DNA of 41,188 nucleotides, taken from NCBI GenBank assembly GCA_040081735.1, contig JBEBFX010000001.1:1-41188 (forward strand), written 5' to 3'. Position 1 is the stretch's first letter, and each line of letters opens with the position of its first letter. A model generated the notes under the pieces. The model was given only the letters and a program-made list of their open reading frames with translations, made no database searches and was not told where the DNA came from. A program made the position numbers and the translations under genes. The stretch comes from Alphaproteobacteria bacterium (GTDB taxonomy: Bacteria > Pseudomonadota > Alphaproteobacteria > UBA11222). Positions 17,489 through 33,857 of this stretch are shown here, one piece after another.

Positions 17489-17493
17489 GAAAT

Positions 17494-19444: not shown

Positions 19445-19458
19445 TACCCGGCTCCCTG

Positions 19459-20097: not shown

Positions 20098-20311
20098 CCT
20101 CAACTCCCTGATCTGGATATTGCGCACACAGCGCGTCAAATTCCTGGCGGCCCGGACTTGCCCGTCCCGCCGCCTCCATTCCATCCCCGGCATGGCCATC
20201 AAGGGCCGCCTGCAACTCCTGCGGGCTCATGCGCCAGAATGTGTCCGGCGTCAGATGCAGCGGCCCGAAAGCCAGCCGCATCAGACGCCGCCAGGGAAAG
20301 GGGCGGTACAC
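20081..20311 (-). CDS. Tail assembly chaperone ORF2 (GTA g10.1-like), probably expressed as a -1 frameshift extension
   Basis: 76-aa frame (PFPWRRLMRLAFGPLHLTPDTFWRMSPQELQAAL). It is in the -1 frame relative to 20281-20664 and overlaps it by 31 nt. The frame opens only 3 codons upstream of its GTG. Confidence 0.6.
   Translation of the reverse strand: MYRPFPWRRLMRLAFGPLHLTPDTFWRMSPQELQAALDGHAGDGMEAAGRASPGRQEFDALCAQYPDQGVEDAADG
20246..20302 (-). other. Candidate programmed -1 ribosomal frameshift signal (slippery heptamer plus hairpin)
   Basis: On the minus strand, C CCU UUC occupies 20302-20296 in the zero frame of the g10-like ORF (codons gcC CCU UUC). A 5-nt spacer follows. The stem then pairs 20290-20278 with 20258-20246, giving 13 bp with one U-U mismatch and a 19-nt loop. 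Confidence 0.5.
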
Positions 20312-20664
20312 TCTCCGTCATTCTCTTTTGGCGCAGTATCCGCCTGTCCGTCCGATCCAAACGCGGCCTGCAACAGATCAATAACGAGTGCCAGATATCC
20401 CGGCACGCCGCCCTCCACCTGCATATTGGCCACCTGGTCATCCTGAATATCGTTGCCCCCGCCGCGCAGTCCGCAGCCGATAACGCAGATCGCCTCCCGC
20501 GCCGTGATGCGGCCCGTTTCAAAACGTTGCGCCAACGCCAGAATATCCTTACCGCCCAGACGCTCTTCCAGTTCCGCCAGCGCGCCAAGGGTCAGGCACA
20601 AGGTGTGCGCCCTGCCGTCCAGCATGGCGGATATTTCGCCGCGATGAAGATTGGTCATGTTCAT
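20281..20664 (-). CDS. Tail assembly chaperone ORF1 (GTA g10-like)
   Basis: 127-aa ORF. MNMTNLHRGEISAMLDGRAHTLCLTLGALAELEERLG is the typical GTA-family-protein N-terminus. It has an ATGA overlap with the major tail gene. Confidence 0.7.
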   Translation of the reverse strand: MNMTNLHRGEISAMLDGRAHTLCLTLGALAELEERLGGKDILALAQRFETGRITAREAICVIGCGLRGGGNDIQDDQVANMQVEGGVPGYLALVIDLLQAAFGSDGQADTAPKENDGECTAPFPGGV

Positions 20665-21074
20665 ATCACCGTGAAGGCAAGCTGCCCGGCGCTTTCCAGC
20701 GCGACGGAATAGGTAACCTCGCCGTCATATTCACCGGCATATTCCATCGCACTGATCTGGAACGCGCCCTGAATGACGCCAAAGCTGGGCACAATCAGCT
20801 GCCAGTTCCGCAATGTCCCATTGAAGAAAAATCCGCGCACGGTTTCATCCGCCGCGTCGTCGCGGAACACGCCTGTGCCGCTGATGGATGCGGATTTTAT
20901 GCCCGCCCCCTCCAGAATTTCACGCCAGCCATTGACGCTGTCCGCATTGGTAATATCTACCGGTCTTGCGTTCAGCGACAGGCTGCGGGTGCGCAACCCC
21001 GCCACCGTTACAAAAACACCAGCCCCCGTGCTATCCACTTTCAACAGCAGATCGCGTCCCTTTTGTGCGGCCAT
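20661..21074 (-). CDS. Major tail protein (TP901-1-like, GTA g9-like)
   Basis: 137-aa ORF (MAAQKGRDLLLKVDSTGAG...FVTVAGLRT). Its size and position lie between the tail-completion and chaperone genes. Confidence 0.8.
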   Translation of the reverse strand: MAAQKGRDLLLKVDSTGAGVFVTVAGLRTRSLSLNARPVDITNADSVNGWREILEGAGIKSASISGTGVFRDDAADETVRGFFFNGTLRNWQLIVPSFGVIQGAFQISAMEYAGEYDGEVTYSVALESAGQLAFTVI

Positions 21075-21103
21075 GAGGGCCTCCTTTTAATGAGAGTGAA
21101 AAA

Positions 21104-21490
21104 TCAGAGCGGATGGGTCACGGCGCGAAACCGCACCAGCCCATGACGCGACACGCCATCGGGATCCGGAAATTCATCGGCAAACACAAACCGCAAATCG
21201 ACCAGCTGATGCCCGCTCAGGCTCAGCGCCACGCCATCAAGCGCCGCCATGATCGACGACATGATCTGTTTCATTTCCTTGCGGCCCTGATAGCGCGACC
21301 AGATATGAATGCTCAGCGCATGCTGCTCGCCGCTCAAATCGCCCGCACCCCAGGCCGATACCGCCGCATCCCCCACCACGACATAGGGGAACGGCGCATT
21401 CTGGGGTACGTGATCATAAACCGGCTCCGCCAACAGGGTATCAAGCCGGGCAAAGATCACCTGTTGCAGCTCCCAACCTGCCGCTGTCAT
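21104..21490 (-). CDS. DUF3168-family tail completion/terminator protein (GTA g8-like)
   Basis: 128-aa ORF with the pattern VYDHVPQNAPFPYVVVGD...HALSIHIWSRYQGRKE, in the g8 position. Confidence 0.75.
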   Translation of the reverse strand: MTAAGWELQQVIFARLDTLLAEPVYDHVPQNAPFPYVVVGDAAVSAWGAGDLSGEQHALSIHIWSRYQGRKEMKQIMSSIMAALDGVALSLSGHQLVDLRFVFADEFPDPDGVSRHGLVRFRAVTHPL

Positions 21491-21520
21491 GGGCGTACCT
21501 CGCTGATTAAGTTATTGAAA

Positions 21521-21719
21521 TAGGGCGTTTTGTGATCTGATTGAAACAAGCCTGGCTTTCTCGCATGTTGCCGATCCCCTCTCGCCGCGCTAGCGCTGGC
21601 GCAGCGGGCCCTGTCCCTCCCCTTTGCAAGGGGAGGGAACCTCGACGCGAACACCGCCTCCCCCGGAAAGGGGGAGGTTGGGTGGGGGTCCGATTCAATG
21701 TGAAAACAAAATGCTCTAG
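21521..21719. repeat. MITE-like element, family 2, copy B (199 bp), inside the structural operon
   Basis: It is in the same orientation as 11184-11355 and ~90% identical to it, with an extra ~30 bp (ctctcgccgcgctagcgctggcgcagcgggc). It fills nearly the whole g7-g8 intergenic gap. Confidence 0.85.
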
Positions 21720-21733
21720 GCTCGAAGGCTGCC

Positions 21734-22054
21734 TTACCCGGCAACGCCTTCTTCGCAGCGGCATTCGAGCCACTGGCTGCGCTCATTCACGTTTTTCACG
21801 CTTCGGATATTCAGAATGCGCTGCTGCAACGCCAGCCGGTCGGCCGGCGTAATATCGCCGCGATAACGCATACGGATCAGGTAAGTCTGTGTGGCCTGCA
21901 TTTGCATGGCATGAACGGTTTCGCTGCCCGGCAACGGCGTTATCCTTGCCCACAGCTCAGCAATATCGATCCAGCTCAACGCGGCGCCGCCCCCCGCATC
22001 CGCTGTTTCCAGACGGCGTTGCAGGATGATTTTCCGGCGCATTCCCCCAATCAT
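21734..22054 (-). CDS. Head-tail adaptor / head-closure protein (GTA g7-like)
   Basis: 106-aa ORF with the SPP1 gp16-like pattern RRKIILQRR...WIDIAELWARITPLPGSE...YLIRMRYRGDITPADRL. Confidence 0.75.
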   Translation of the reverse strand: MIGGMRRKIILQRRLETADAGGGAALSWIDIAELWARITPLPGSETVHAMQMQATQTYLIRMRYRGDITPADRLALQQRILNIRSVKNVNERSQWLECRCEEGVAG

Positions 22055-22055
22055 C

Positions 22056-22703
22056 TTACAACCTCATCATTCTGTAGGGCGCCAGCAGATTATGCACGCC
22101 GAGCGGTAAAACCTGCGCCCTGCTGTCTGCGCTCTGCAACACTTCGCGGTTTTCAAAATAATGCGCCGTCAGCATCAGCACCGCCTGGCGCAAGGGCGCA
22201 GGGACGTCTCCCTGTCCAACCCCATAGCCGCAGGTAAAATCAATCTGGAGCCCGTTGGCCGCCCTTTGCGGTTGCGGGGCCGAGGCAGTATTTCGCAACA
22301 CCAGCCTGCCGGGCGTACTTGCGGTATCGGCAAAATAATTGTCCGGTGACCACGCCACCCCCTGATCGGCATCATTGAACAGCGTCACTGAAACGACAGC
22401 CTGCAATGGCGCTTTGGGAATTTCAATGAACCGCGCGGCTCCCGCACGTACTGCGCCCTGACGCACCCCGTCCCACCAGGCGTCCCCGCCAGCGTACGTC
22501 CAGCTATCCATCATCCAGCGCCAGCCCTGACTGATCAGCGCCCTGCCGGTCCAGCTCTCCACCATCTGCCGGGCGGTGCGGATATGCCCAAGCATCAGGG
22601 CCAGCTCATCCTCGCTATCGATGCGCAGATGCGCCAGCGCTTCGGCCTCGCTTACCGGCTCAATCGCGGGCGCGCTCAGCAAACTCAACCGTTCACGGAT
22701 CAT
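22056..22703 (-). CDS. gp6-like head-tail connector protein (GTA g6-like)
   Basis: 215-aa ORF. The N-terminus VSEAEALAHLRIDSEDELALMLGHIRTARQMVESWTGRALISQ is the canonical connector motif. Confidence 0.75.
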   Translation of the reverse strand: MIRERLSLLSAPAIEPVSEAEALAHLRIDSEDELALMLGHIRTARQMVESWTGRALISQGWRWMMDSWTYAGGDAWWDGVRQGAVRAGAARFIEIPKAPLQAVVSVTLFNDADQGVAWSPDNYFADTASTPGRLVLRNTASAPQPQRAANGLQIDFTCGYGVGQGDVPAPLRQAVLMLTAHYFENREVLQSADSRAQVLPLGVHNLLAPYRMMRL

Positions 22704-22978
22704 TATCGTTGCTCCACTCTGACGGTGATGGAACGCTCGTCCGTGCGCCCCTGGGATGTCGTGATGCGGTTTGACATCTGGTAAATCTGCCCCGCAACGC
22801 CGCCGGTGACGGTGACGGTGGCGACGCTGGCCGTATTACCGGCGGCGCTCTGGGTCATATCGCCGGGGAAGATGGTCCAGATACTGCTCGAAAGGGTTTC
22901 ACCGCCCTGCAAATACCCCCCACCCCAGTCGATCGAATAATCCAGTACGGCGCCCGGGTCCTTGACATAAAATTGCAT
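22703..22978 (-). CDS. Small beta-rich phage structural protein (KDPxxxLDYxxDW-type)
   Basis: 91-aa ORF (MQFYVKDPGAVLDYSIDWGGGYLQGGETLSSSIW...). The motif recalls a small Ig-like phage family that some annotations call a fibre-tail adaptor (from memory). It has a TAATG overlap with g6. Confidence 0.4.
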   Translation of the reverse strand: MQFYVKDPGAVLDYSIDWGGGYLQGGETLSSSIWTIFPGDMTQSAAGNTASVATVTVTGGVAGQIYQMSNRITTSQGRTDERSITVRVEQR

Positions 22979-22988
22979 GAATTATCCT

Positions 22989-23381
22989 TTAGGTTGGGTC
23001 GGCGATTTCAACATCGAATGCGTTAACCGTCATGGTGTTGCCAGCCGTCACCGCCTGCGAGGCCGAAAGGCTTGTCACCGCCAGCAGAACGCTTGCCGTA
23101 TCATCCACCAGCGCCACATGATCGGCGGTTCCGCTGACATCCACCGTTATGCCGGTCTGCTGATTGACCGTCAGCTTGCGTCCCGAAACGTCGCCGTTTG
23201 CCGGGCCTGCAAAATTCGCCGATGTAATGGCGCGCTGGCCGCACCTTTTCCCTGTGGGCGAATTGGCATTTGCCTCTGCATAGGTCGCAGGCGCGCCAAT
23301 GCACACCACCAGTTTGTCCGCCGTGGTTTTGATCTGACCCAACGCCGCATCGAGCACGGCGTCATCCACTGTCTTTGTCAT
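22989..23381 (-). CDS. Hypothetical phage structural protein
   Basis: 130-aa ORF, packed 3-10 nt from its neighbours on the same strand. It has Ala/Thr/Val-rich beta-type composition. I recognise no family. Confidence 0.35.
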   Translation of the reverse strand: MTKTVDDAVLDAALGQIKTTADKLVVCIGAPATYAEANANSPTGKRCGQRAITSANFAGPANGDVSGRKLTVNQQTGITVDVSGTADHVALVDDTASVLLAVTSLSASQAVTAGNTMTVNAFDVEIADPT

Positions 23382-23384
23382 CGT

Positions 23385-24515
23385 TTACTCCGTGATTGTT
23401 TTGATTCTGTTTAATGCCGCAACCGATACGGAACGCCCGTCAACGGCTGGCTTGTTTCTGCGTGAATTACCGGCAATCACTGAAATTCTGAACCCCGGTG
23501 CGCCTGGTGCGCCTGCCCCCGGCGATGCGGAATCGAATCCAGACGCCATATGCATGTCCAGCGCCGGTAATAAATGCGCCTGGAAAAGCCCCGGGGTCTC
23601 AAAACCTTCGGCCAGAAATCCATCCATCGGGATCAGATTATGCGCCTGCGACATTGCGGACGGATCGAATGACAAACTATTCAATGTATCGGCAGGGGCA
23701 AGCACTGCATCGCCGCCCGGCGGCGTCCATACGCCGCGCCACTCAGCCATGGGCCGGAACATGCAGAACGGGTCAATGGCCAGCATCCGCATCTCGGCAT
23801 TGCTCAACGCCCGGTTCCAGGCGGCCGCAAAAACGATCGTGCAGGCGGTGTCAATGCGGAAAGTTGTCGTCTCGGGCCGCTGGCCTATGGCGAAACCCAG
23901 CGTTCCCGTTTTTATATCCTGAATCGTTCCGGACGCCGTGGCGCGCAGAACACCGTCAACAAAACCTTCCACATTGGCGCCTGCCCTGCGCCCGCCGAAC
24001 AGATGATATTTGCCGTCAATGGCCCCGGAAACCACCGCATTGGTGTTACTGTTTACGTTACGCGTGTTGAAGGAAAACATTCCCGAGGTGGCCGTGGCCA
24101 CTGACCCCGCCGCATTGTTAAACCCCAGCCACAGATTGGTGTTGTCCGCCACGTTGCCCTGAGCCAGCCCCCAGCTGATCCTGGATTCCGCAATCGGATT
24201 GGCCAGAATAATCATGGTCAGATCACCGGCGCCGGCCTCATCCGATGTTGAAATAAACTCGATATTGTCCTGAGAGAGAAGATTGGACGCTCCCGAAATA
24301 CCTGCGCCCGGCCCATAGGGCGTACCGCGCCATTGCAGGGTTGATCCCGCTGTCAGATTTGCCCCGGCAAGCGGCTGCCCCATGCTGTTCAGAAGCGCGC
24401 CATTACCCGCATTTCCCCATAGCGGCGCAAGGAATGCCAGCCCCTGCCACAGTCTGCGGGAACCGGGCGCAACAAGTGCAGGCGCAATATTCCAGCGTGG
24501 CGGTTTTTGTCGCAT
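23385..24515 (-). CDS. LamG/concanavalin-A-like lectin-fold protein with C-terminal short repeats (fibre/spike candidate)
   Basis: 376-aa ORF. The central region (LTMIILANP...WLGFNN...KYHLFGGRR...GFVDGVL...FAAAWNRALSNAEMRML) follows the Laminin_G_3 jelly-roll pattern. The C-terminus has three Fxxxx(Q)AHxL-like repeats. Confidence 0.5.
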   Translation of the reverse strand: MRQKPPRWNIAPALVAPGSRRLWQGLAFLAPLWGNAGNGALLNSMGQPLAGANLTAGSTLQWRGTPYGPGAGISGASNLLSQDNIEFISTSDEAGAGDLTMIILANPIAESRISWGLAQGNVADNTNLWLGFNNAAGSVATATSGMFSFNTRNVNSNTNAVVSGAIDGKYHLFGGRRAGANVEGFVDGVLRATASGTIQDIKTGTLGFAIGQRPETTTFRIDTACTIVFAAAWNRALSNAEMRMLAIDPFCMFRPMAEWRGVWTPPGGDAVLAPADTLNSLSFDPSAMSQAHNLIPMDGFLAEGFETPGLFQAHLLPALDMHMASGFDSASPGAGAPGAPGFRISVIAGNSRRNKPAVDGRSVSVAALNRIKTITE

Positions 24516-24530
24516 GGGGTGCGCGATCCG

Positions 24531-24911
24531 TCAGCGTTCAATGGCGGGCGTAAACGGCGCCAGGGTTTTTATCGCATTAATCAGCTCCCGGATGGTTTCA
24601 CCCCTCTGGACGCTCAGGGCTTCATTCATTTCGGCCTGGGTCATCTGCCCGGCAAAAGCCTTGGCGCCCTCGGCCTCGTACAGGAACTCAATGCCGTCCG
24701 GGGTTTTCCCGGAAAGTTTGACACGCTCGTTTTCCTTTCCCCCGCACAGTTTCGCATCGATCTGTCCGGTCTGCGCGTCATAGGCAAGCGACGCCTGATT
24801 TATTCCCGCACAGGACGGCGGGCTGGCGCGATACACCGTGCCGCAGGCTGCAAGTGAAACGGCGCCCCCCGCCGCAAAGGCCAATGCCAAAGCAGAATAT
24901 TTCATATTCAT
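24531..24911 (-). CDS. Small lipoprotein
   Basis: 126-aa ORF. The signal peptide carries a lipobox (MNMKYSALALAFAAGGAVSLAAC), and the mature part has three further Cys residues. It lies inside the structural operon. Confidence 0.5.
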   Translation of the reverse strand: MNMKYSALALAFAAGGAVSLAACGTVYRASPPSCAGINQASLAYDAQTGQIDAKLCGGKENERVKLSGKTPDGIEFLYEAEGAKAFAGQMTQAEMNEALSVQRGETIRELINAIKTLAPFTPAIER

Positions 24912-24935
24912 TTCCTTTCCAGCTTCTGTGAAGGG

Positions 24936-25307
24936 TTACGCGCTCACGCCATCCAGCATGTAGGCCCCGCCCATGGTGTAGGTGTTTGTGGCGCCCGTGC
25001 TCAGCCCGCCGATACGGAACTTGCGCACCCCCATCACCGTGAATGCGAAATATTCCGCATTGATGGTCGCGGGCTTGATGGTGAACTGCATGAATGCGAA
25101 CACGTCCCAGGTTTCGCTGGACGCATCCAGCGTTGTGTAAACCGACACCTGCAAACTGTCGGTGACAGCACTTGCGTGCTCGTTGTCAATCTTCAGCTGG
25201 ACATGACATAATTCGCGCGGGTTCAGCGTCACTGAGGCCAGAAATTCCTCTGCCGTATTGTTGATCGCCGTCTGATCGGTAAAGTTCTGTTTCGAGCCCC
25301 AGGCCAT
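24936..25307 (-). CDS. Hypothetical protein directly after the capsid gene (decoration-protein position)
   Basis: 123-aa ORF with a GAGGAG RBS 7 nt upstream and beta-rich composition. I recognise no family. Confidence 0.35.
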   Translation of the reverse strand: MAWGSKQNFTDQTAINNTAEEFLASVTLNPRELCHVQLKIDNEHASAVTDSLQVSVYTTLDASSETWDVFAFMQFTIKPATINAEYFAFTVMGVRKFRIGGLSTGATNTYTMGGAYMLDGVSA

Positions 25308-25330
25308 TTCAAACTCCTCATCAGCGGGAC

Positions 25331-25360
25331 AAAAAAAAGGGTGAAATTTTCATTTCGCCC
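25331..25360 (-). terminator. Intrinsic terminator after the major capsid gene
   Basis: The minus strand reads GGGCGAAA-ugaaaa-UUUCACCC (8-bp stem, one C-A mismatch) followed by U8. It lies 22 nt after the capsid stop. Confidence 0.6.
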
Positions 25361-25381
25361 CAACTTTTTTAACTGGCGAAC

Positions 25382-26623
25382 TTACGAAACGCCGAATTTC
25401 AGCAATTTGATCGCCTCGAAATTCTGCACGCCGCCGCCCACGCGCTTGGTGGTGTAAAACAGCACATAGGGTTTGGCCGTGTACGGATCACGCAGCACAC
25501 GGATGCCCAGCCGGTCCACCACCAGATAGCCGCGCCTGAAATCGCCAAAGGCGATGCTGAAACTGTTGGCGGCCAGGCTTGGCATGTCTTCTGATTCCGT
25601 CACGGGATACCCAAGCAGCGTCGAGGGCTGCCCCGCCAGCAGGGACGGCTGCCACAGATACAACCCGTTGGCGTCCTTGAATTTGCGGATATCCGCCTGC
25701 ACATTGCGGTTCAGCACCCAGTTGGCGTTCGAGCGGTACCCCTGTTTCAGGGTGTAGATCAGATTGACCAGGGCATCGCTGGGATTGCTGGCCGCGAACG
25801 CCGCCGAAACCCCGGTCGCCAGATAGCCCATATTGCCCCACGTCCACGATGCGTTGGCCACATTGGTGTAGGCCAGAAAGCCCTTGGGCTTGTTCACCCC
25901 GTCACCGCTGACAAACGCCAGGCTTTCCTGTTCGGCGAAAATGATCTGCACTTCATCCGCCAGCCAGGCTTCCGTATCCACGGCGGCGTCATCCAGAATG
26001 GTCTGGGTCGCCGACGGCATGGCGTAGATCTCCATCGCCGGGAAACTCAGCTCCACCAGGGTGGGCGTTGTGGTCTGCGGACGCGCCGCCGTTTCACCCA
26101 CCCAGCCGGTGCTGGCGCTGACCGTGGCGAACGGCTTTTTGTAGACATTGCCGCTGATTTTCTGCACCCCGGCAATGGACCGGATGGGCGACGCCACCGA
26201 CAGCAGCCGCTCAATCTGGCGCTCGGTTTCGGCCGGCACCAGATAGCCGCCGTCGGCGCTTACGCCAACAGACAGCGCCTTGCTTTCCAGCTCATGCAGG
26301 CCGTGCTCGACGCCTTTGCGCATGTACAGATCAAAGCCCGCTTTGTGCTCGCGCCCATACATGCCGTGCTGCGCGCCCTCGGATGAAAAATCCGGACGCG
26401 CATGGGCCAGCGCCATTTCATCCATGCGCTGTTTGTGCTCATCCAGCGCCCGGTCATGGCGGTCGAGTTTTTCGCGGGTCAGCACGTCTGCGCCAAGCCG
26501 CGTATCCAGCTCCCGCAACCTTTGATCATTGGTGCTTTTATACGCCTCAAAGGTGCGCTGGAAACTGCCGAACTCGGCTTTCACTTCACGGGCGACGGGT
26601 ATCTCATGGCTGTTCTGGTTCAT
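25382..26623 (-). CDS. HK97-family major capsid protein (GTA g5-like)
   Basis: 413-aa ORF with an N-terminal delta-domain-like coiled region, then GGYLVPAE...FAEQESLAFVSGDGVNKPKGF...YTAKPYVLFYTTKRVGGG, which is typical of HK97-type capsids. Confidence 0.9.
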   Translation of the reverse strand: MNQNSHEIPVAREVKAEFGSFQRTFEAYKSTNDQRLRELDTRLGADVLTREKLDRHDRALDEHKQRMDEMALAHARPDFSSEGAQHGMYGREHKAGFDLYMRKGVEHGLHELESKALSVGVSADGGYLVPAETERQIERLLSVASPIRSIAGVQKISGNVYKKPFATVSASTGWVGETAARPQTTTPTLVELSFPAMEIYAMPSATQTILDDAAVDTEAWLADEVQIIFAEQESLAFVSGDGVNKPKGFLAYTNVANASWTWGNMGYLATGVSAAFAASNPSDALVNLIYTLKQGYRSNANWVLNRNVQADIRKFKDANGLYLWQPSLLAGQPSTLLGYPVTESEDMPSLAANSFSIAFGDFRRGYLVVDRLGIRVLRDPYTAKPYVLFYTTKRVGGGVQNFEAIKLLKFGVS

Positions 26624-26728
26624 ATTTTCCTCATGGTTGCGTTGCAGAAATGCAGCATCCGCTGTGCGGATAAAGCTGCGCGATTAGTAAAAATGCAGGG
26701 CAGGGTCTGTTGAAATTGAAGCGCAAGC

Positions 26729-27313
26729 CTAAATATCAGCTGACATTGCTCTGGCCGCCTGCCGGATGGCGAAGGCAAGTTCACGTAAGTCCTGATCCGA
26801 ATCCTGCGGGAAACTTTCCAAATCGCGCAGGCTATCCGCTTGTTTGACGCCAGCCACCCGCGCCGCGTCATTCATGGGAAAGGTCACGATCGAGATTTCC
26901 CACAAATCTATTTCAAGCAGTGTCCGCACGCCGGTTCGCTCATCCATCCGCGCCCGCACGGTTCTGAAGCCGATGGACAATCCATCAATCGCGCCTGCGC
27001 GCAACAGCGACAGCACCTCGCGGCCCCGCGCCACATCGCCCAACAGACGCCCGCGCACCAACAGGCCGCGCGCATCTTCTGCGATATGCTCCCACACCCC
27101 TATCGGCTCATTCGCATCATGCTGCCACAGCATGCGCACCTGATCCGCCGGCCGCGCCGCCAGCGAGTTTTTGAACGCCCCCGGCGCAACAACATCGCCG
27201 CCAGAATCCGCATTGCCAAAAACACTGGCGTAGCCTTCGATAACGCCATCCTCACCAACGGCGCGCACCTCCGCCCCGGCCAGCTTGACCTCCAGTTGAT
27301 CCTCTACGTGCAT
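26729..27313 (-). CDS. HK97-family prohead protease (GTA g4-like)
   Basis: IEGYASVFGNADSGGDVVAPGAFKNSL is the S78 protease motif. The start is chosen at ATG 27313, with GGGAG 5 nt upstream. The longer track ORF (to 27379) runs through the upstream terminator. Confidence 0.85.
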   Translation of the reverse strand: MHVEDQLEVKLAGAEVRAVGEDGVIEGYASVFGNADSGGDVVAPGAFKNSLAARPADQVRMLWQHDANEPIGVWEHIAEDARGLLVRGRLLGDVARGREVLSLLRAGAIDGLSIGFRTVRARMDERTGVRTLLEIDLWEISIVTFPMNDAARVAGVKQADSLRDLESFPQDSDQDLRELAFAIRQAARAMSADI

Positions 27314-27328
27314 GATAACTCCCGGCAT

Positions 27329-27354
27329 AAAAAAAGCGCCCCGGCTGGAGCGCT
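27329..27354 (-). terminator. Intrinsic terminator closing the inserted two-gene cassette
   Basis: The minus strand reads AGCGCUCC-agcc-GGGGCGCU followed by U7 (plus-strand A-run 27329-27335). It lies directly upstream of the protease RBS. Confidence 0.65.
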
Positions 27355-27435
27355 GTAAATTTTCTTCCCATTCCCTCATTGGGAAAGGGGATGCTTATTC
27401 CGCTTGGCTATATGGCCACCACGATGTTCACTACT

Positions 27436-27987
27436 TCACTTCCTTTGCCGTACTTTTTTTGCAGGCACTTTCTTTGCCTCGACCGGCGTTTCACCGGACT
27501 TGTTCCCCCGCGTAACCAGTATGGAAACGATACTGGCGGCGCCAGCCCCAACCAGCGACATACCCACAGCTGTCGCACCTATGTAAGCGCAATACGCCGC
27601 TCCTGCTATAAAGCCAAAGCTGACTAAGACGCCACTTAGCTGCCCAAAAACTTCACCGAAGGCGCTCCACCTTAAGACCCTGCTCTCAAGGCCTTGCCTG
27701 TGAACCTGCTCTTTTTCCGCCATACTAATGATGCGATTTGCAGAGCCAGAAAGAATTTCTTCATATCCCGCCAGGTGTGCGGGAGGTGGGATTGGTCCCT
27801 GGAACGACTCATACCGTTCCACAGTACGCGTAACAGTCATAACAATCTTATTCTTTGTGTCTTTATTGAGAGACGTTCCCCTAAGTAGAGGCTCAAGTTC
27901 TTCTTCGAGCGCCTCTTTTAGGCCATCCTCATCCGCGTGCTCATTTACTGAGACGGATCGTCCATCGGCGACGGTAGGGTCGCTCAT
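27436..27987 (-). CDS. DUF2335-family membrane protein
   Basis: 183-aa ORF. FQGPIPPPAHLAGYEEILSGSANRIISMAEKEQVHRQ matches the DUF2335 signature. Two C-terminal TM helices are followed by a strongly basic tail (KKVPAKKVRQRK). G+C is lower than in the cluster. Confidence 0.6.
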   Translation of the reverse strand: MSDPTVADGRSVSVNEHADEDGLKEALEEELEPLLRGTSLNKDTKNKIVMTVTRTVERYESFQGPIPPPAHLAGYEEILSGSANRIISMAEKEQVHRQGLESRVLRWSAFGEVFGQLSGVLVSFGFIAGAAYCAYIGATAVGMSLVGAGAASIVSILVTRGNKSGETPVEAKKVPAKKVRQRK

Positions 27988-28265
27988 TTCTTGAATGTAT
28001 GATCTTCAATTGCTGACCAAAGATCCCCGCCAACCTTCGCCCAATCTCCGGCCAGACCTTTACCCTTATAGGCTCGGGCGGATACCGGGGGCATTATTAC
28101 GTTGGCTTGTGCGCTCATCCCCTTCAAGAAACCCCTCTTCAGGCCAGACGTAATTGCGTCAACAACAATACGCCCATCCGAAGCGGTTCTTTTCGCAGTC
28201 TCGCGTTCAGACCGTCTAATACCGTCCTTTGTCAGTGTTTTCATAAAGATTCTCATATAATGCAA
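27984..28265 (-). CDS. Hypothetical small basic protein (first gene of the cassette)
   Basis: 93-aa ORF with a 4-nt overlap with the DUF2335 gene. Alternative ATGs lie at 28256 and 28244. I recognise no family. Confidence 0.35.
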   Translation of the reverse strand: MHYMRIFMKTLTKDGIRRSERETAKRTASDGRIVVDAITSGLKRGFLKGMSAQANVIMPPVSARAYKGKGLAGDWAKVGGDLWSAIEDHTFKK

Positions 28266-28548
28266 TGGGCGATATCGCTAGTTCACTTAATGAATATATA
28301 CCCATAAAGCCTACACTGCAAGACTCGGTTGCTTTTTTACGTCCCAATTTCTATCTAATTGTCAAGTATTTTTTTAAGAAGCTGTAAATTTCGTGGGTCA
28401 TTTGCTTTAAATTGTAGTGTTTCCTAACAAATTGTGGCGGCTCCTCCACCTTTTACAATTCATTTTTCACCACGGGTTTCAGGTATATAATTTCCAACTG
28501 TAAGACTTTACGTCATAAAGTTTCTTTAATTGATTATTTCGAGACACC
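28266..28548 (-). promoter_or_regulatory. AT-rich non-coding region, probably the promoter/operator of the cassette
   Basis: 283 bp with no ORF of 60 aa or more, and far more AT-rich than anything nearby. AATTGT/ACAATT occurs three times (about 28410, 28431, 28455). A TACAAT -10 candidate lies on the minus strand (28416-28411). Confidence 0.4.
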
Positions 28549-28815
28549 CTATCCCCCCTGCATCCGCTCCAGTGTCGCTTCGATGCGTGCCAGCGCCTCC
28601 AGCGTATGACGCAGCTTTTCCTCCTGGCGCACCAGCCGCTCCGACATTTCGGTCTGGAGGGTGGATGCGCTTTCCAGCCGCCGCACCCGCTCGCCCATGC
28701 CGCCCGCCCATATCAGCGCCGTGCCGATCTGCACGCCCAGCAGCACAAACAGCATGACCGGAATTTTGCGGTCGATCCCCCAGCCGGGTTTTTCCGCCCC
28801 GTCAATGGCGCTCAT
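28549..28815 (-). CDS. Small single-pass membrane protein with a coiled-coil tail (g3.5 position)
   Basis: The start is chosen at ATG 28815, with GGGAGG 6 nt upstream. The protein reads MSAIDGAEKPGWGIDRKIPVMLFVLLGVQIGTALIWAGG (TM), followed by a heptad-like RRLES...LEALARIEATLERMQ. Confidence 0.5.
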   Translation of the reverse strand: MSAIDGAEKPGWGIDRKIPVMLFVLLGVQIGTALIWAGGMGERVRRLESASTLQTEMSERLVRQEEKLRHTLEALARIEATLERMQGG

Positions 28816-28834
28816 CCGTAAACCTCCCATTCGT

Positions 28835-30061
28835 TTATGTTTTGTTCTTTAAATCAGCAAGCCGGTCACCCTCTGCGACCGGCGCATATCCCGTAGCGGC
28901 GCGCTTTTCATTGATCGTCAGAAAATCCGCCGCGCGCACCCGCTCCCATAATGAATCCCGGTCCGCCGCCAGCGCCTCCACCTGATCCGCGTCATACCAG
29001 AGCCGCAGCCCCGGCCCAAAGCGCGGCCCCAGCCACTGGGTCATCGCTGCGCACGCCTTGCCCGCCAGCGGCAAAATGGTCTGCCGGTGAAACGCAAGAT
29101 TGGCTTCCCGGTAATTGGCGTAGGTATTGTCGCCCTGTATGCCCAGCAGCATCGGCGGCACCCCGAACGCCAGCGCGATCTCGCGCGCCGCCACATGTTT
29201 GGACTGAATGAAATCCATATCCTTCGGATTGAACGACATTTCCTTCCAGTCCAGCCCGCCTTCCAGCAGCAGCGGGCGTCCTGCATTGGCCGGTCCCTGA
29301 TAATTGTCCGACAATTCCTGCTTGAGACGCGACAGCTGATCCTGGCTTAAATTTGCACTGCCATCCGCGCCATGATAAATCAGCGCGCCCGAGGGCCGCG
29401 CGCCATTATCCAGCAGCGCCTTGTTCCATCCCGCCGCGGCGTTATGAAGATCAATGCCCAGCGCCGCCGCCTCGATGGGCGAGAATCCGTAATGATCGTT
29501 ACTCGGGTGAAACAGACGCATATGCAGAATGGGCGCGCGCCCGCGCGCGGCGTCCATCTCGAAGCGCACACTTTTACCGCCTGTGGAATATTCATAGGCG
29601 GCCGGCCATCCACGCGCGCCCGGTATCACTTTCATCCGGTCCGGACGCAGCACATATAATTCGCGCACCGCCCCGCGCAGATCGGCGGCCTCAATATAGG
29701 CGTTGCCTGCAATCTGCAAAAACCCGAACCAGGCTTCTTTCATCTCGATGCCGCTCTGCAACGGGTTTGGCCGCGCCAGCAGGCTCAACAGCGGATGCGT
29801 GTCCAGCTCCCGCTCGCGCCCGCCCGTGTTTTCATACAATATCCACGGCACGGCGGCGGCGGTTTCACTGATCATCCGTACACAACGATAAGCGATGGCG
29901 TTGCGCGCAAAACCCTCCTGCGCCAGATCGCCATAGTGGCGCGGCGTCCATACCGGCGTCCCCTGGCCATGAAGGGCGATCAGGGAACCGGCGGCGCTTT
30001 GCTTGGCCGCCATTGGCGGGCGAAAACCAAACCGGCGCAGAATGCTGAATGTGTCTCTCAC
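28835..30061 (-). CDS. HK97-family portal protein (GTA g3-like)
   Basis: 408-aa ORF with the typical pattern YRCVRMISETAAAVPW...GNAYIEA...FSPIEAA...IALAFGVPPMLLG. Confidence 0.9.
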   Translation of the reverse strand: MRDTFSILRRFGFRPPMAAKQSAAGSLIALHGQGTPVWTPRHYGDLAQEGFARNAIAYRCVRMISETAAAVPWILYENTGGRERELDTHPLLSLLARPNPLQSGIEMKEAWFGFLQIAGNAYIEAADLRGAVRELYVLRPDRMKVIPGARGWPAAYEYSTGGKSVRFEMDAARGRAPILHMRLFHPSNDHYGFSPIEAAALGIDLHNAAAGWNKALLDNGARPSGALIYHGADGSANLSQDQLSRLKQELSDNYQGPANAGRPLLLEGGLDWKEMSFNPKDMDFIQSKHVAAREIALAFGVPPMLLGIQGDNTYANYREANLAFHRQTILPLAGKACAAMTQWLGPRFGPGLRLWYDADQVEALAADRDSLWERVRAADFLTINEKRAATGYAPVAEGDRLADLKNKT

Positions 30062-30080
30062 GCTCGCTCCTTTCTATCCA

Positions 30081-31418
30081 TCATAGCCGCAGCACGCGCG
30101 GCTCTCCCGCTTCGCCGGTCAGCATCAATTCCGTCAGCGCCCATACCAGCGCATCGACCCGGTCCGGGCTCCACCCCGCAGCGGCGCGGTTGAATCCCCG
30201 GGTAAATTCCGCCATTTCATCCTCCAGCGCCGGTAATGCGCCGACATGATGCACCCGGCCCTGTTCATACAAGGCGGACACAGGCTCAGCCCGCGCCGCC
30301 TTGCCCCGGCTGGCGCGCACGGACCGCACCGGTAAATTTGGATCAACCTGTCTGATCACCGATTCCACCATGTCGCCGCCCTGGTTGACTTCCGCCACCA
30401 GCCTGTCGGCCTGGAAATCGCGATAGGCGGCCACGGCCCTGCTGGCCCAGACATGGGGCGACACGCCCTGGACCGAATAGTCAGCCAGCACGTAGCCTGC
30501 GCCATCCACCCCAAGCCCCGCCACAATAATCCCGCACGCATCACTATTGGCCGTGCTGGCCGCAGGGGGATCAACGGCCACCACAATGCGCCTCATTTCG
30601 GCGGCGGTTTTCACCCTGCATCTGTCGATCTGCGCCCGGCTCCACAATGCGTCTGGATTATCTTCCAGCAGTTCGGCCAGCAATTCCTGGCGTCCCAGCC
30701 GCGTGCCTTCGTACTGCGCCGTTATGCGATCAAAAAACTGCGGCGCCAGATTTGCGGCGTTGGCGTAACTGGTTGCCCGCGACACCACTGTATGTGCATC
30801 CGCCAGCAGATCGCGCAGCAGGCGTTGCGGACGTGGCGTCGTCGTAATCACCTGGCGCGGATCGGCCCCCAGCCGCAGGCCGAATTGCAGCATGTCCCAG
30901 GTTTCACGGCTGTGCCGCCATTTCGTCAATTCATCCGCCCACGCCCCATCGAACTGCGGACCGCGCAGTCCATCGGGATCTTCGGCGGAAAATAACTGCG
31001 CCTGCGCCCCGTTGGGCCAGATCAGGCGGCGTTTGGACGCTTCATATTTTGGCCGCGCCCAGGCGGGCGAAATGGCCAGAATGCCGCTCTCTCCCTCCAC
31101 CATCACATCGCGCGCGCTGCCGATGGTTTCACCGATCAGCGCGATACGTGACCGCTGTCCACGGCCCAGCGGCGTCTTGCCTGCGACGGATGCGCGCACC
31201 CATTCGGCCCCGGCGCGGGTTTTGCCCGCACCCCGTCCGCCCAGCAATAGCCAGCTTACCCATTTACCATCGGGCGCCAGTTGATCCTCGCGCGCCCAGA
31301 AAGGCCATAACCAGAGAAGCTGCCTGCGCAATCCGGGCGCAAGACCGGCAATAATTTCATCCCTCCGGCGTTGCGGCAGCGAGGCGAGCCAGACGGCGTT
31401 GAACTTCATCCCAGCCAT
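30081..31418 (-). CDS. Terminase large subunit (GTA g2-like)
   Basis: 445-aa ORF with Walker A LLGGRGAGKTRAGAEW, a DE-type Walker B (ADELTKW) and a C-terminal nuclease-like region (VAVDPP...DACGIIVAG). Confidence 0.9.
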   Translation of the reverse strand: MAGMKFNAVWLASLPQRRRDEIIAGLAPGLRRQLLWLWPFWAREDQLAPDGKWVSWLLLGGRGAGKTRAGAEWVRASVAGKTPLGRGQRSRIALIGETIGSARDVMVEGESGILAISPAWARPKYEASKRRLIWPNGAQAQLFSAEDPDGLRGPQFDGAWADELTKWRHSRETWDMLQFGLRLGADPRQVITTTPRPQRLLRDLLADAHTVVSRATSYANAANLAPQFFDRITAQYEGTRLGRQELLAELLEDNPDALWSRAQIDRCRVKTAAEMRRIVVAVDPPAASTANSDACGIIVAGLGVDGAGYVLADYSVQGVSPHVWASRAVAAYRDFQADRLVAEVNQGGDMVESVIRQVDPNLPVRSVRASRGKAARAEPVSALYEQGRVHHVGALPALEDEMAEFTRGFNRAAAGWSPDRVDALVWALTELMLTGEAGEPRVLRL

Positions 31419-31905
31419 CCAGCGCCCCCAAATTATTCTCTGCCATTATGGCGTCCGCTTCAATGACGCTGCCGGGATGGGCGCCGGCTTCACGCTCCAG
31501 CACAATCAGCTTCTCCAGCGCCCGCGCCAGAGATGTCAGAATGTCCGCCGCGCCCTTTTTTTCCGTGGCGCTCATAACTCCCTCATTGGGATGATCCAGA
31601 TGCAGTTCCAGCTCATCCGCCAGCCGGTTGACGATGTTCATCATGCGCGCCAGCGCCCGGGCCGCGTTGACGTCACCCCCGGCCATCGCAAATTTCAGAC
31701 GCCTGTTTTTGATGCTCGGGCGGCGCGCCGGTTTGCCGGGTTTTACAGTATCGCTGGTGCCGGGCCGCGCCCAGCAGCAGCGATTGGCTTTGGCATAAAT
31801 GCTCACCGGCGCCAGCCCATGCTTGCGGGCAATTTCCGGCACCGGCATGGCGCCCGCATGATAGTCCCGCGAAACGGCCTCCCAATCAATCTGACGCTTC
31901 GTCAT
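31357..31905 (-). CDS. HTH protein in the small-terminase (g1) position
   Basis: The start is chosen at ATG 31905, with AGGGAG upstream. MTKRQIDWEAVSRDYHAGAMPVPEIARKHGLAPVSIYAKANRCCW looks like an N-terminal HTH. The gene overlaps terL by ~60 nt. Confidence 0.45.
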   Translation of the reverse strand: MTKRQIDWEAVSRDYHAGAMPVPEIARKHGLAPVSIYAKANRCCWARPGTSDTVKPGKPARRPSIKNRRLKFAMAGGDVNAARALARMMNIVNRLADELELHLDHPNEGVMSATEKKGAADILTSLARALEKLIVLEREAGAHPGSVIEADAIMAENNLGALDGWDEVQRRLARLAAATPEG

Positions 31906-32034
31906 CGTCGCTCCCTGAAAAAATATGGTTACGCACAAGCCACAAAAAAAAGCGTCTCACTTGCGCGGGCGCTTTTCATCGTGTTGCGTGACGTTAGTTC
32001 GTTTTTTGATCAGGTTGAATCGCCTCACCCACTG

Positions 32035-32123
32035 TGTCACCCCGCACTTGTTGCGGGGTCCAGGTACAAAATTACTGGCTTTTCTTTGTGGCTCCTGGAC
32101 CCCGGAATAAATCCGGGGTGACA
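32035..32123. repeat. Pair of REP-like GC hairpins in inverted orientation
   Basis: The sequence is tgtcaccccgcacttgttgcggggtccagg ... cctggaccccggaataaatccggggtgaca. Each half is a 7-bp hairpin. The outer 10-mer (32035-32044/32114-32123) and the inner 11-mer (32054-32064/32094-32104) are also perfectly complementary. Confidence 0.8.
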
Positions 32124-32281
32124 GGCTGAATCCGGGATATGCGTCAATCTGAACAGAAAACGATCTAAATCTGCGTCATGGCCATTGGCCGCCGCCGCGT
32201 CTGAAACACGTCAGGCGGGAGACACACTTTCGACCATGGACAAATGTATACGCTATAGCGTTACGAATAGCAAGCATTATT

Positions 32282-33133
32282 TTACGTATTATGTAAATTA
32301 TTTTCATCTGAAACGTGCACGGTTCGCGGCGAGTGCACCCCGGGCCTGTTTTTTGGCGCGTCCTTCCGGGCAATGCCATAATACGCTGCCAGCCGGTCCA
32401 GAGCGATCCCCAGAACCACCTTGCCCGCCCGCACGGGCCAGCCCAGATGCCGCTCGGCCGCCGCCAGTCCATTCAAATAACAGCATACCTGCAACAATAT
32501 GCCGCCCAGATCGGGGCCGACGGCGTCAATCGCGGCCCATAGCCGGTCCTTGGCGGCGATCATCGTATCGTTCATGCTGGCCTGATCGCTGCCCGCCCCC
32601 CGCCCTGCGCGATTGATTGGCATGCCCCATGACGCGGTTACTCTCGGGGCCAGGTTGGCAAGGGTAAAGTCTCGCCGCAGGCGTTCCCCGGCGGCAAACT
32701 GTTCAATAGTAATCAATGGTTTGCCATGTTTATCTTTATGGCTGACCAGCCATCCCAACGGGCTTTCCGCATGATTGACGCGCACCACAACTGCTTCACC
32801 TTTTTCTGTGCGCTGTTCCTTAAGGTCAAGTATCTGATGCTGGCTGCGATAGGGGGAATCTGGCGCCTGCCTGCGCCGCAGACGCGCGCGCCCCAGCCGG
32901 GAAATACGCCACTCACCAGGTGTCTTGTCCGATGCCAGAATCAGTTCCTCAGTCATCAGCTGGCGAACGGCCTTCTCGCCCGCAACCAGCACAGGCCTGG
33001 CAAATCTGTTCCTGGGGACAAAAACCCCCATCCCGCCCCCGTCCGTCAAGCGGCCAACTGCCTGAAATTCGCCAAGGTGAAACAGAACAGCCTCGACTTC
33101 AGACGTTTTCTCTTTTTTATCGGTGATTTTCAT
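32282..33133 (-). CDS. DUF6456-type protein, candidate GafZ/GafA-C-terminal-like GTA activator
   Basis: 283-aa ORF. ESPLGWLVSHKDKHGKPLITIEQFAAGERLRRDFTLANLAPRVTASW ... DRLWAAIDAVGPDLGGILLQVCCYLNGLAAAERHLGWPVRAGKVVLGIALDRLAAYYGI matches my memory of the alphaproteobacterial DUF6456 pattern. A GAGGT RBS is present. Confidence 0.55.
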   Translation of the reverse strand: MKITDKKEKTSEVEAVLFHLGEFQAVGRLTDGGGMGVFVPRNRFARPVLVAGEKAVRQLMTEELILASDKTPGEWRISRLGRARLRRRQAPDSPYRSQHQILDLKEQRTEKGEAVVVRVNHAESPLGWLVSHKDKHGKPLITIEQFAAGERLRRDFTLANLAPRVTASWGMPINRAGRGAGSDQASMNDTMIAAKDRLWAAIDAVGPDLGGILLQVCCYLNGLAAAERHLGWPVRAGKVVLGIALDRLAAYYGIARKDAPKNRPGVHSPRTVHVSDENNLHNT

Positions 33134-33278
33134 AACATACCTCTATAAGATGCAGGTTTATATTCCTTTTATAGGACTTATTGCTGAATTACAAGTTAAA
33201 AATATTTCCTATAACATTCGTTTAATTTTGTTATATTCTCGTTTATCGTAAATTTATTGATTCGGAACATTCTGGTTC
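33134..33278. promoter_or_regulatory. AT-rich divergent control region with repeated CTATAA half-sites
   Basis: CTATAA occurs at 33143-33148 and 33209-33214, and inverted (TTATAG) at 33169-33174. Two of these are embedded in TCCTATAA. The region lies between the divergent activator-like and repressor-like genes. Confidence 0.5.
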
Positions 33279-33857
33279 ATGCATAATAAAATCCGTCATT
33301 ACCGTAAACAGCGTGGCTTGACGCTGGCCTCGCTCGGGGCCGCCATCGGCCTGACGCCGCAATCCGTATCGCGCATTGAAACTGACAAAATGCGGCTGTC
33401 CACCGTGTGGATGGAACGCATCGGGGCTGCGCTGAATGTCAGCCCGGTGGATCTGATTGAGGCCGCCCTCCCCGGCGGCGGGGCCGAATTGATCGGCGAG
33501 ATCGGCGCAAATGGCGCCTGCGCCCCGCTTGATCCGCAACCCTTCCGGATGGCGCTTCCCGGACCGGACACCAAGGTCATCCGGCTGGCGCGCGCCTGCG
33601 GGCCGTATCGCGCCGGGGAATATCTGGTGTGCACCCGGCTTCCGGAACCCCGGCATGAAACAGCGCTAGGGCTTGATTGTCTTGTTGAATTAACCGGCGG
33701 CGCCCGGAACTTATGCCGCGTCGTGACACAATCCGCCAAACCGGGAAAAGTCAAAACCTTCACATTGGCGGGGATCGATTCGGGAAGCTGGGTGTTGCGC
33801 AAACAGCGGATCGCCTGGATCGCCCCGGTGCGCATGCGCCTGCAATTCACCGCCTGA
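33279..33857 (+). CDS. XRE-family HTH regulator with a cI/LexA-like C-terminal domain
   Basis: 192-aa ORF. The HTH is IRHYRKQRGLTLASLGAAIGLTPQSVSRIETDKMRLSTVWMERIGAALNVSPVDL. The C-terminal beta-rich domain is laid out like peptidase S24, but I cannot find the GxSM...K catalytic pattern. Confidence 0.7.
   Translation: MHNKIRHYRKQRGLTLASLGAAIGLTPQSVSRIETDKMRLSTVWMERIGAALNVSPVDLIEAALPGGGAELIGEIGANGACAPLDPQPFRMALPGPDTKVIRLARACGPYRAGEYLVCTRLPEPRHETALGLDCLVELTGGARNLCRVVTQSAKPGKVKTFTLAGIDSGSWVLRKQRIAWIAPVRMRLQFTA

Follow-up and report, generated by a model that had tools for sequence, protein, structure and literature searches.

The window analyzed in this study, which is the whole 41,188-bp contig of a metagenome-assembled genome (MAG) from an uncultured alphaproteobacterium, contains a chromosomal gene transfer agent (GTA) cluster of the type known from Rhodobacter capsulatus (RcGTA-type), with a probable control module at its head. 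The module consists of a gene for a GafZ-like protein of 283 amino acid residues (aa), which is followed by the terminase genes, and of a divergently transcribed gene for a repressor-like helix-turn-helix (HTH) protein of 192 aa. The two genes very probably encode a RogA-like/GafZ-like control pair of the GTA. The best explanation for the arrangement, and one that we regard as probable, is a repressor/GafZ control module of an RcGTA-type GTA, acting by repression and by antitermination at a terminator in the leader of the cluster; the antitermination-only detail of this explanation is put forward more tentatively. The genes concerned are as follows.

32282..33133, minus strand: GafZ-like gene, 283 aa (Pfam DUF6456)
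33279..33857, plus strand: repressor-like gene, RogA-like in architecture, 192 aa (open reading frame (ORF), Pfam and structure model)
31357..31905, minus strand: terS, terminase small subunit (PHROG 1206, E 1.7e-14)
11743..31418, minus strand: RcGTA-type structural cluster, recognized by family matches (terL, portal, DUF2335, S78 protease, capsid, fibre-like genes, connectors, tail, tape measure, distal tail, hub, NlpC/P60, megatron, DUF2793, cell-wall hydrolase and an RNase-A-like toxin-domain protein)

The tail module of the cluster matched the NCBIfam GTA_megatron equivalog (1812 bits), as well as TIGR02217, TIGR02218, TIGR02219 and RcGTA_tape, and TerL gave a Terminase_6N/6C match in Pfam. 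No integrase, excisionase or replication genes were found in the 41-kb window, the flanks of which are host genes (glutamine-synthetase-like, LptF/G, sugar-nucleotide and polysaccharide genes). The identification of the cluster as RcGTA-type follows from the RcGTA-specific equivalogs, the absence of integrase and replication genes, and the host flanks. Thus, as known here from the genes alone, GTA-specific structural genes are present without an integration or replication module and occupy a fixed chromosomal site in most of the related MAG loci. Translation of terS probably begins at the ATG at 31905, where a GGGAG ribosome-binding site and an MTKRQ start kept in relatives are found, the mechanical start of the ORF being the TTG at 31938. 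The distance from the GafZ-like gene to terS is 376 bp to the more likely ATG or 343 bp to the TTG; the latter corresponds to the about 340 bp given in a preliminary description of this DNA, made from its sequence without database searches.

The same description had assigned the 283-aa protein to DUF6456, and this assignment was borne out by the Pfam check. Family PF20057 (DUF6456) was matched with E 9.3e-47 and 159 bits (cut-off 26.3) at aa 117-253, covering profile positions 1-135 of 136, and the sequence signatures that had been noted (AESPLGWL, AGERLRRD, VCCYLNGL, WPVRAGKVVL and AYYG) are all found in the translation of the minus-strand ORF. A search for homologues of the protein gave 265, with PF20057 in 120 of the 120 listed, and an identical NCBI protein is named 'DUF6456 domain-containing protein'. 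In agreement with the preliminary description, DUF6456 is the family of the GafA C-terminal module and of the GafZ homologues (PMC9638019, PMC9765227), and the 283-aa protein is a member of this DUF6456/GafZ family.

The structure model of the GafZ-like protein (predicted local distance difference test, pLDDT, 74.6) showed a confident N-terminal domain at aa 10-90, a beta-hairpin, and a helical C-terminal part with helices at 189-252. For the N-terminal domain, Foldseek returned weak winged-helix matches (Rio2/eS10/ETS), all with E above 0.1. The last helices resemble sigma region 4 (SigD, 3vfz; template modelling score (TM) 0.87, root-mean-square deviation 1.3 over 60 residues, probability 0.96), with an E of about 1 that is not significant for the whole chain. 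The N-terminal 116 aa were also considered as a hidden GafY, and this was rejected because the same domain is found in GafZ proteins having a separate GafY.

The 192-aa protein is composed of an XRE HTH domain (aa 1-60) and a beta-rich C-terminal domain (aa 68-188). Pfam matched only HTH_31/HTH_3 at aa 5-60. The divergent XRE-HTH protein of the preliminary description is present with the stated position and length, across an AT-rich region of 145 bp. An AlphaFold2 model built from 21 homologues (pLDDT 87) contains an HTH domain of five helices, joined by a disordered linker to a beta-rich domain. Foldseek comparison of this model with the PDB gave the full-length lambda repressor as the top match (3bdn, E 8e-5), followed by the C-terminal domain of lambda cI (2ho0, TM 0.56); among the predicted viral structures of BFVD, the best matches were two-domain repressor CI or LexA-like proteins, to E 1e-13. 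A profile search of the PDB matched SinR, 434 cI and P22 c2 in the HTH part only, and hhalign against lambda cI, and against a small LexA/lambda cI/UmuD alignment, gave nothing. The cI/S24-like layout that had been suggested for the C-terminal domain is therefore one of predicted fold, the sequence searches having returned no S24 signal.

The invariant C-terminal residues in the alignment of the 21 homologues are G108, Y110, E114, L116, D133, C134, L135, L145 and R147. No invariant Ser or Lys was found in this domain across the 21 homologues, in line with the earlier failure to locate the catalytic dyad by reading, and the linker is without a conserved Ala-Gly. Judged from this alignment, the 192-aa protein does not appear to be a self-cleaving S24 repressor, neither the dyad nor an Ala-Gly (or Cys-Gly) cleavage site being present. 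The model supports an architecture and a predicted fold like those of cI/LexA, with the Ser/Lys dyad missing. An alignment made by eye, placing G108/P109 at LexA Ser119 and C146-R147 at K156-R157, had no tool support and was not used.

A word-indexed search gave 32 close relatives of the repressor-like protein. An exhaustive profile search of 1.84 billion representatives gave 58 clusters at E <=1e-30 and more than 100 full-length two-domain matches, so that the family is a large one; overall there were 14,888 matches, mostly to the HTH only. Phage relatives of both regulators were searched for in 50,697 phage records, with a single match going beyond the HTH, which came from a misfiled bacterial contig; the one match of the repressor in these records covers aa 1-56 only. 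In the part examined, the contig in question (L050; GenBank MW462191.1, 67082-85594), which is filed as 'Bacteriophage sp.', contains genes for protease II and a MucR-like regulator together with gafY-gafZ and sufE. This synteny is of the bacterial Hyphomicrobiales type, so that the 103-kb record appears to be a bacterial contig filed wrongly among the phages.

The region between the two divergent genes has a GC content of 0.27, as compared with about 0.6 on either side, and contains the following features.

33134..33278: divergent AT-rich control region, 145 bp (alignment of 12 loci)
33149..33177: most conserved block of this spacer, GATGCAGGTTTATATTCCTTTTATAGGAC (consensus form TTGTAGGtTTATATtCCTTTTATAGGAtAt; invariant and near-invariant columns of the 12-locus alignment)
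33169..33214: inverted repeat with arms 33169-33182 and 33201-33214 (14 nt, 86% complementary, with TCCTATAA in both orientations)
33243..33255, plus strand: TTATCGTAAATTT block upstream of the repressor start (TTATACGTACATAT in relatives, TTTCGTACATATCGGGG at the same place in Parvibaculum-type loci)

The octamer TCCTATAA occurs three times in 41 kb, 0.44 copies being expected, and two of the copies lie in the spacer in inverted orientation (33169-33176, minus strand; 33207-33214, plus strand), with a third CTATAA at 33143-33148. The three CTATAA half-sites of the preliminary description, two of them inverted, are thus present; as for their conservation in 11 related loci, it is strong for the middle site, partial for the right-hand one, and lacking for the left one. 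The sequence that includes the middle site, CCTTTTATAGGA, occurs only once in the window when no mismatch is allowed. Similarly, the left arm of the inverted repeat is conserved and the right arm partly so. Between the arms of the repeat lies the candidate gafZ -35 (TTGTAA, 33194-33189; TTGTCA in several relatives), and the repeat extends to where the -35 of the candidate repressor promoter (-10 TATATT) would be placed.

The GATGCAGGTTTATATTCCTTTTATAGGAC block is made of alternating AGG/CCT/AGGA half-sites located 16-44 bp from the GafZ-like start codon, and overlaps the candidate gafZ -10 (TATAAA or TAAAAG, minus strand, about 33166-33173). It is proposed as the candidate operator on the basis of its conservation. 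Its position at the core promoter is that at which RogA sits at PgafYZ, and its sequence differs. No convincing further copies of the operator-like or promoter-block motifs were found elsewhere in the window.

A second set of conserved features was located in the spacer between the GafZ-like gene and terS, the length of which ranges from 129 to 1119 nt in relatives.

32225..32292, minus strand: candidate GTA-cluster promoter block, beginning at the gafZ stop codon (13-locus alignment, 20 invariant columns) and composed of ATACGTAAAATA (32289-32278, including the stop codon), -35 TTGCTA (32273-32268), -10 TATACA (32250-32245) and CCATGGTCGAAAGTG (32239-32225)
31994..32168: nested palindromic element of about 175 nt within the leader (inverted-repeat scan)
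31944..31977, minus strand: terminator-like hairpin, GAAAAGCGCC...GACGC then U8, 39 nt before the terS ATG (fold -18.8 kcal/mol)

About 70 nt of the promoter block are common to the 13 aligned loci, in the order ATACGyAAAATA, TTGCnA, exactly 17 nt, TATAAn and CCATGGTCGAAAtTGcGTCC; the motif, which can also be written TTGCnA-17-TATAAn/CCATGGTCGA, has its TTGCnA-17-TATAAn part in 13 of the 13 loci, and both promoter-block motifs are unique in the window. The 17-nt spacer between the candidate -35 and -10 carries a perfect palindrome, ACGCTATAGCGT (32261-32250), and short inverted repeats are found in or beside this spacer across the 13 loci. The last codons of the GafZ-like gene and its stop codon overlap the upstream element of this next promoter. 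The encoded C-terminal tail, ..NNLHNT* (32278-32300, minus strand), is kept only in the cluster-linked clade, and its codons coincide with ATACGTAAAATA; the tail may owe its conservation to the DNA sequence and not to the protein. In CCATGGTCGAAAGTG (32225-32239, minus strand), a short ORF (MVESVSPA* in the window, MVEIAS... in relatives) begins with an invariant ATG located about 8 nt downstream of the candidate -10; this could be a small ORF translated without a leader, or else serve an antiterminator as a loading or pause element.

The 277-nt leader folds at -112.6 kcal/mol (z -6.2). It includes the nested palindrome, with outer arms at 31994-32018 and 32144-32168 and inner arms at 32035-32064 and 32094-32123, each inner arm having its own small hairpin; the element is not present in most relatives and is probably an insertion resembling a miniature inverted-repeat transposable element or a repetitive extragenic palindrome. 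A GC-rich hairpin with a T-run (>=6) is clear in 9 of 14 loci, mostly about 40-60 nt before the terS ATG, and the hairpin of locus L004 folds at -20.8 kcal/mol (z -3.8). The same hairpin with a T5 run is found in L010, and a shifted one in L009. A consensus terminator scan missed the window hairpin because its loop exceeds 8 nt, and an Rfam scan of 31800-33400 gave no match. The hairpin at 31944-31977 is proposed as a candidate antitermination target.

Insertions in the leader always lie between the promoter block and the hairpin, both of which stay intact, and the leader appears to be an insertion hot spot. In addition to the 175-nt palindrome of the window, these insertions comprise repeats in two loci (L010, L012) and a toxin-antitoxin pair of the DUF4258/HTH kind in two others (L001, L002); the DUF4258 toxin-like and HTH antitoxin-like genes occupy 8040-8861 in both of the latter loci, in the same orientation.

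The order glnA-like gene, repressor gene, divergent gafZ, terS, terL and portal was found in 17 loci (L001-L005, L007-L008, L010-L017). The more distant L009 (48% identity) has the core of repressor, divergent gafZ, terS and terL with MucR on the other flank, and L018 (62% identity) has the same core, the glnA-like gene not being found there. The cluster-linked loci, about 19 in all, come from uncultured freshwater and groundwater alphaproteobacterial MAGs, and their recurrence, together with the RcGTA equivalogs, agrees with the earlier suggestion of a compact cluster-linked pair on a GTA-like element. In most of the related MAG loci the GlnA-like flank is 74-80% identical and at the same site; this shared chromosomal site with its host flank indicates vertical inheritance.

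Outside this clade, members of the same repressor family (31-40% identity) diverge from gafY-gafZ in 10 Parvibaculum/Rhodobiaceae-type loci, with mucR beyond and no terminase nearby. The repressor faces gafY-gafZ, with mucR and sufE, in three of three more distant members picked only for their long contigs. Divergent transcription with gafY directly beside gafZ was observed in 13 of 13 loci of other alphaproteobacterial lineages carrying the repressor, and divergent adjacency of the repressor to gafZ or gafY-gafZ in every locus examined. Further DUF6456 genes also sit away from any terminase. In L048 (3909-4340), the divergent neighbour of gafY-gafZ is a 143-aa protein with no Pfam match, which is not the 190-aa HTH repressor and may be a truncated or different partner. 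We conclude that the repressor-GafZ pairing is old and widespread; what distinguishes the clade studied here is that the pair is fused to the structural cluster at its head and that a linked gafY is lacking.

As the preliminary description had noted, no GafY partner is visible. Neither tblastn nor an 8-sequence GafY hidden Markov model (HMM) run against the six-frame translation revealed gafY in the window (best E 5.8), and no gafY (Bac_DnaA_C-like) was detected in the window and 13 related loci (best E of the GafY HMM, 1.9). By comparison, an adjacent GafY has been reported for 494 of 759 GafZ homologues (PMC9632790). Sherlock and Fogg in 2022 noted the Hyphomicrobiales synteny with an upstream 'mucR or helix-turn-helix containing gene' (PMC9638019). 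Full-text searches of the literature found no description of a cluster-adjacent gafZ, which is weak negative evidence. Both regulator types are known; the cluster fusion, the missing gafY and the promoter-leader-terminator architecture appear to be undescribed.

The proposed mechanism draws on the Caulobacter GTA. The repressor RogA of this system has an HTH and an S24-like domain without catalytic residues and represses PgafYZ (Gozzi et al. 2022, PMC9632790), and Caulobacter GafZ is an anti-terminator acting with NusA, NusG and NusE (Tran and Le 2024, PMC11150451). By analogy, the repressor-like protein would bind the AGG/CCT-type block over the gafZ-like core promoter, and probably also its own promoter, and keep gafZ off in the way that RogA does at PgafYZ. 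Since the Ser/Lys dyad and the Ala-Gly site are lacking, no RecA-stimulated self-cleavage is expected, and removal of the repressor would depend on some RecA-independent signal. The GafZ-like protein would then act at the near-consensus sigma-70-type promoter that starts at the stop codon of its own gene. It would do so by way of the palindrome in the -35/-10 spacer, the position of which matches the GafZ-binding element of Caulobacter, this being a near-perfect palindrome situated between the same two elements of the cluster promoter (PMC11150451). From there it would carry RNA polymerase through the hairpin just before terS and the roughly 20-kb cluster would be switched on. A consensus -35 at the Caulobacter cluster promoter makes the GafY activator dispensable (PMC11150451). 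In view of the good promoter hexamers and of the absence of a linked gafY, the activation tier formed in Caulobacter by GafY and integration host factor (IHF) may be dispensable here, leaving a two-component switch of repressor and antiterminator. Repression, activation and RecA independence are all putative.

A further-reaching version can be formulated, in which GafZ alone, without GafY/IHF, is a Q-like processive antiterminator at a constitutive promoter and leader terminator, under a non-cleavable cI/RogA-like repressor, and in which the contiguous layout represents the ancestral phage late-control region and the dispersed rogA, gafYZ and cluster the derived state. We regard this version as rather unlikely.

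Several points weigh against the explanation by repression and antitermination. For the repressor-like protein, HTH-cupin enzymes score closely behind lambda cI in the structure comparison, the match of the C-terminal fold is moderate (TM about 0.55), and an S24 signal at the sequence level is absent from Pfam, the PDB profile search and hhalign, so that the S24-like claim is one of predicted fold. The protein is likened to Caulobacter RogA (CCNA_00080, 213 aa) by architecture and genomic association, and the Caulobacter RogA box GGAA-N4-TTCC is absent from the divergent spacer. The promoters and operators were read by eye from conserved sequence and a simple consensus promoter/terminator scan reported none; the proposed promoter, operator and terminator elements accordingly depend on their conservation across loci. 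The palindromes in the -35/-10 spacer are AT-rich and vary in register between loci, and some could be due to chance. The hairpin of the window has a mismatch and a z of only -2.4, and hairpins are weak or absent in L012, L013 and L015. The search for gafY covered the 41-kb window and roughly 5-21 kb per related locus, and gafY could lie elsewhere. In Caulobacter, gafZ alone is insufficient for GTA induction, which needs both gafY and gafZ (PMC9632790). Finally, the organism is known only as a MAG contig and the control unit from its genes alone.

Some of these points are shared by a different explanation, according to which the GafZ-like protein is a classical activator of the GafA or GafY-GafZ type that recruits RNA polymerase with a GafY encoded elsewhere, the hairpin being not a regulated terminator but, e.g., a stabilising or insulating element or the remnant of a bidirectional terminator. 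The Caulobacter requirement for both proteins, the limited sequence searched for gafY per genome and the weakness of the hairpin in some loci are in its favour, as are the binding of the GafA C-terminal domain to the region of -35, -10 and transcription start site of the RcGTA promoter (PMC9638019) and the report that 94% of the genomes with a GTA have GafA/GafZ homologues, in many cases next to gafY (Kogay et al., PMC9765227; PMC9632790). It is considered unlikely, as gafY is missing from the window and 13 related loci while being adjacent in all 13 repressor-bearing loci of other lineages, near-consensus promoter hexamers need less help, and the hairpin with its U-run stays just before terS despite large upstream insertions.

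A cI-like repressor facing a late regulator before terS also resembles the late-control region of a phage, and the number of linked accessory genes (fibre-like genes, DUF2793, hydrolase) is higher than in RcGTA, as might be found if the element were an intact or recently decayed temperate prophage with the pair as its lysogeny switch. The strong matches to GTA-specific NCBIfam equivalogs, the lack of any integrase, excisionase or replication gene in 41 kb, the vertical inheritance indicated by the common site and host flank of most related MAG loci, and the failure of both regulators to find a relative in the phage records, other than that in the misfiled contig, make a prophage very unlikely. 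About as improbable is a reading in which the HTH gene has no part in GTA control and either merely happens to lie beside gafZ or regulates the glutamine-synthetase-like gene. XRE regulators are very common, as seen in the profile search, and the glnA-like gene lies only 17 bp away; however, it converges on the repressor-like gene, so that the two have no common promoter region, and the divergent position beside gafZ is kept when the other flank changes (MucR in L009, mucR/sufE elsewhere).

Other genes of the structural cluster are of interest in themselves. Directly after the megatron gene, at 11743-13542, genes were found for a DUF2793 protein of 239 aa, a cell-wall hydrolase (Hydrolase_2) of 150 aa and a protein of 212 aa in which Pfam recognized a bacterial CdiA-CT RNase A toxin domain (E 5e-11); it is unusual for a GTA cluster to end with a nuclease domain of the polymorphic-toxin type. 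Extra genes outside the canonical RcGTA head-tail order are also present at 22703-24515 and 27436-28830: between the capsid and connector genes there are genes for Gp77/Gp80-like fibre adaptor and fibre proteins and for a 376-aa Laminin_G_3 protein, and between portal and protease there are two ORFs of 93 aa and the gene for a DUF2335 membrane protein. It seems that accessory functions have been brought together at this one locus. In several relatives an acyl-CoA dehydrogenase gene, not present in the window, is inserted between the DUF2335 gene and the prohead protease gene (L001 2333-3472, L004 3226-4365, L007 120-1259).

To our knowledge, the regulation of GTAs is understood for only two model organisms, both of which have the regulators dispersed over the genome. 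The locus described here unites the repressor, GafZ, promoter, leader terminator and structural genes within about 2 kb and lacks a linked GafY. It offers a minimal synthesisable cassette, which bears on whether GafZ alone suffices as antiterminator and on what removes a RogA-type repressor that is predicted not to cleave itself. The locus is also relevant to the question of whether the GTA regulators stem from the late control of a progenitor phage or were recruited from the host, and gives a hint of their phage ancestry; the finding will be no surprise to specialists. As markers for finding and delimiting RcGTA-type elements in MAGs, both the repressor-gafZ pair and the conserved promoter block are well suited. 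The arrangement is less new than first thought, since a non-cleavable cI-like repressor is already the description of RogA (PMC9632790) and the repressor family is a conserved divergent neighbour of gafY-gafZ elsewhere, in the synteny noted by Sherlock and Fogg. What has been added to the preliminary description is the anti-terminator role of GafZ in Caulobacter (PMC11150451) and the promoter-like block and hairpin in the gafZ-terS spacer.

Among the systems studied so far, R. capsulatus GafA (Fogg 2019, PMC6363796) likewise has a C-terminal DUF6456 module and binds the core promoter of the GTA cluster directly. It differs in being a fusion protein of 42 kDa that has a DnaA-like domain at its N-terminus and an omega-binding centre, in being encoded away from the cluster, and in its control by CtrA and GtaR instead of a linked repressor. 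The late control of lambdoid phages (cI, Q, PR', tR') is alike in logic and layout: the regulator gene is followed by a strong promoter with the regulator site between -35 and -10, a short leader ending in a terminator, and then the terminase and structural genes, and there is a two-domain cI-like repressor. Lambdoid Q has no sequence or fold similarity to GafZ (PMC11150451; Foldseek in this study), and, unlike in the lambdoid phages, the repressor studied here faces the late regulator directly and appears incapable of self-cleavage.

In gene arrangement, the nearest known counterpart is the gafY-gafZ locus of Hyphomicrobiales that has an HTH gene upstream (PMC9638019), and in which the same repressor family (31-40% identity) is divergent from a member of the GafZ family (about 40%); the cluster-linked relative L009 retains mucR on the far side as in this type of locus. 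In contrast to the window, the Hyphomicrobiales-type loci possess gafY (a Bac_DnaA_C protein) and lie between mucR and sufE, away from the terminase, and their spacer motifs are TTTGCATATTTCGTACATATCGGGGATAAA as compared with the TATAGGA block found here. The closest known system is RogA-GafYZ of Caulobacter. Differences between the two concern the rogA, gafYZ and cluster genes, which occupy three separate loci in Caulobacter and are contiguous here; GafY, for which no linked gene was found here; the terminator, located in Caulobacter after the first gene (after gtaT) and here, as a candidate, before it; and the promoter hexamers, near consensus here and with a degenerate -35 in Caulobacter. 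Common to both are an HTH repressor whose second domain lacks catalytic residues and is cI/LexA-like (here by predicted fold), a DUF6456 regulator of the GafZ type, a target cluster of the RcGTA type, a palindrome in the -35/-10 spacer of the cluster promoter, and an early terminator (here a candidate) that fits antitermination.

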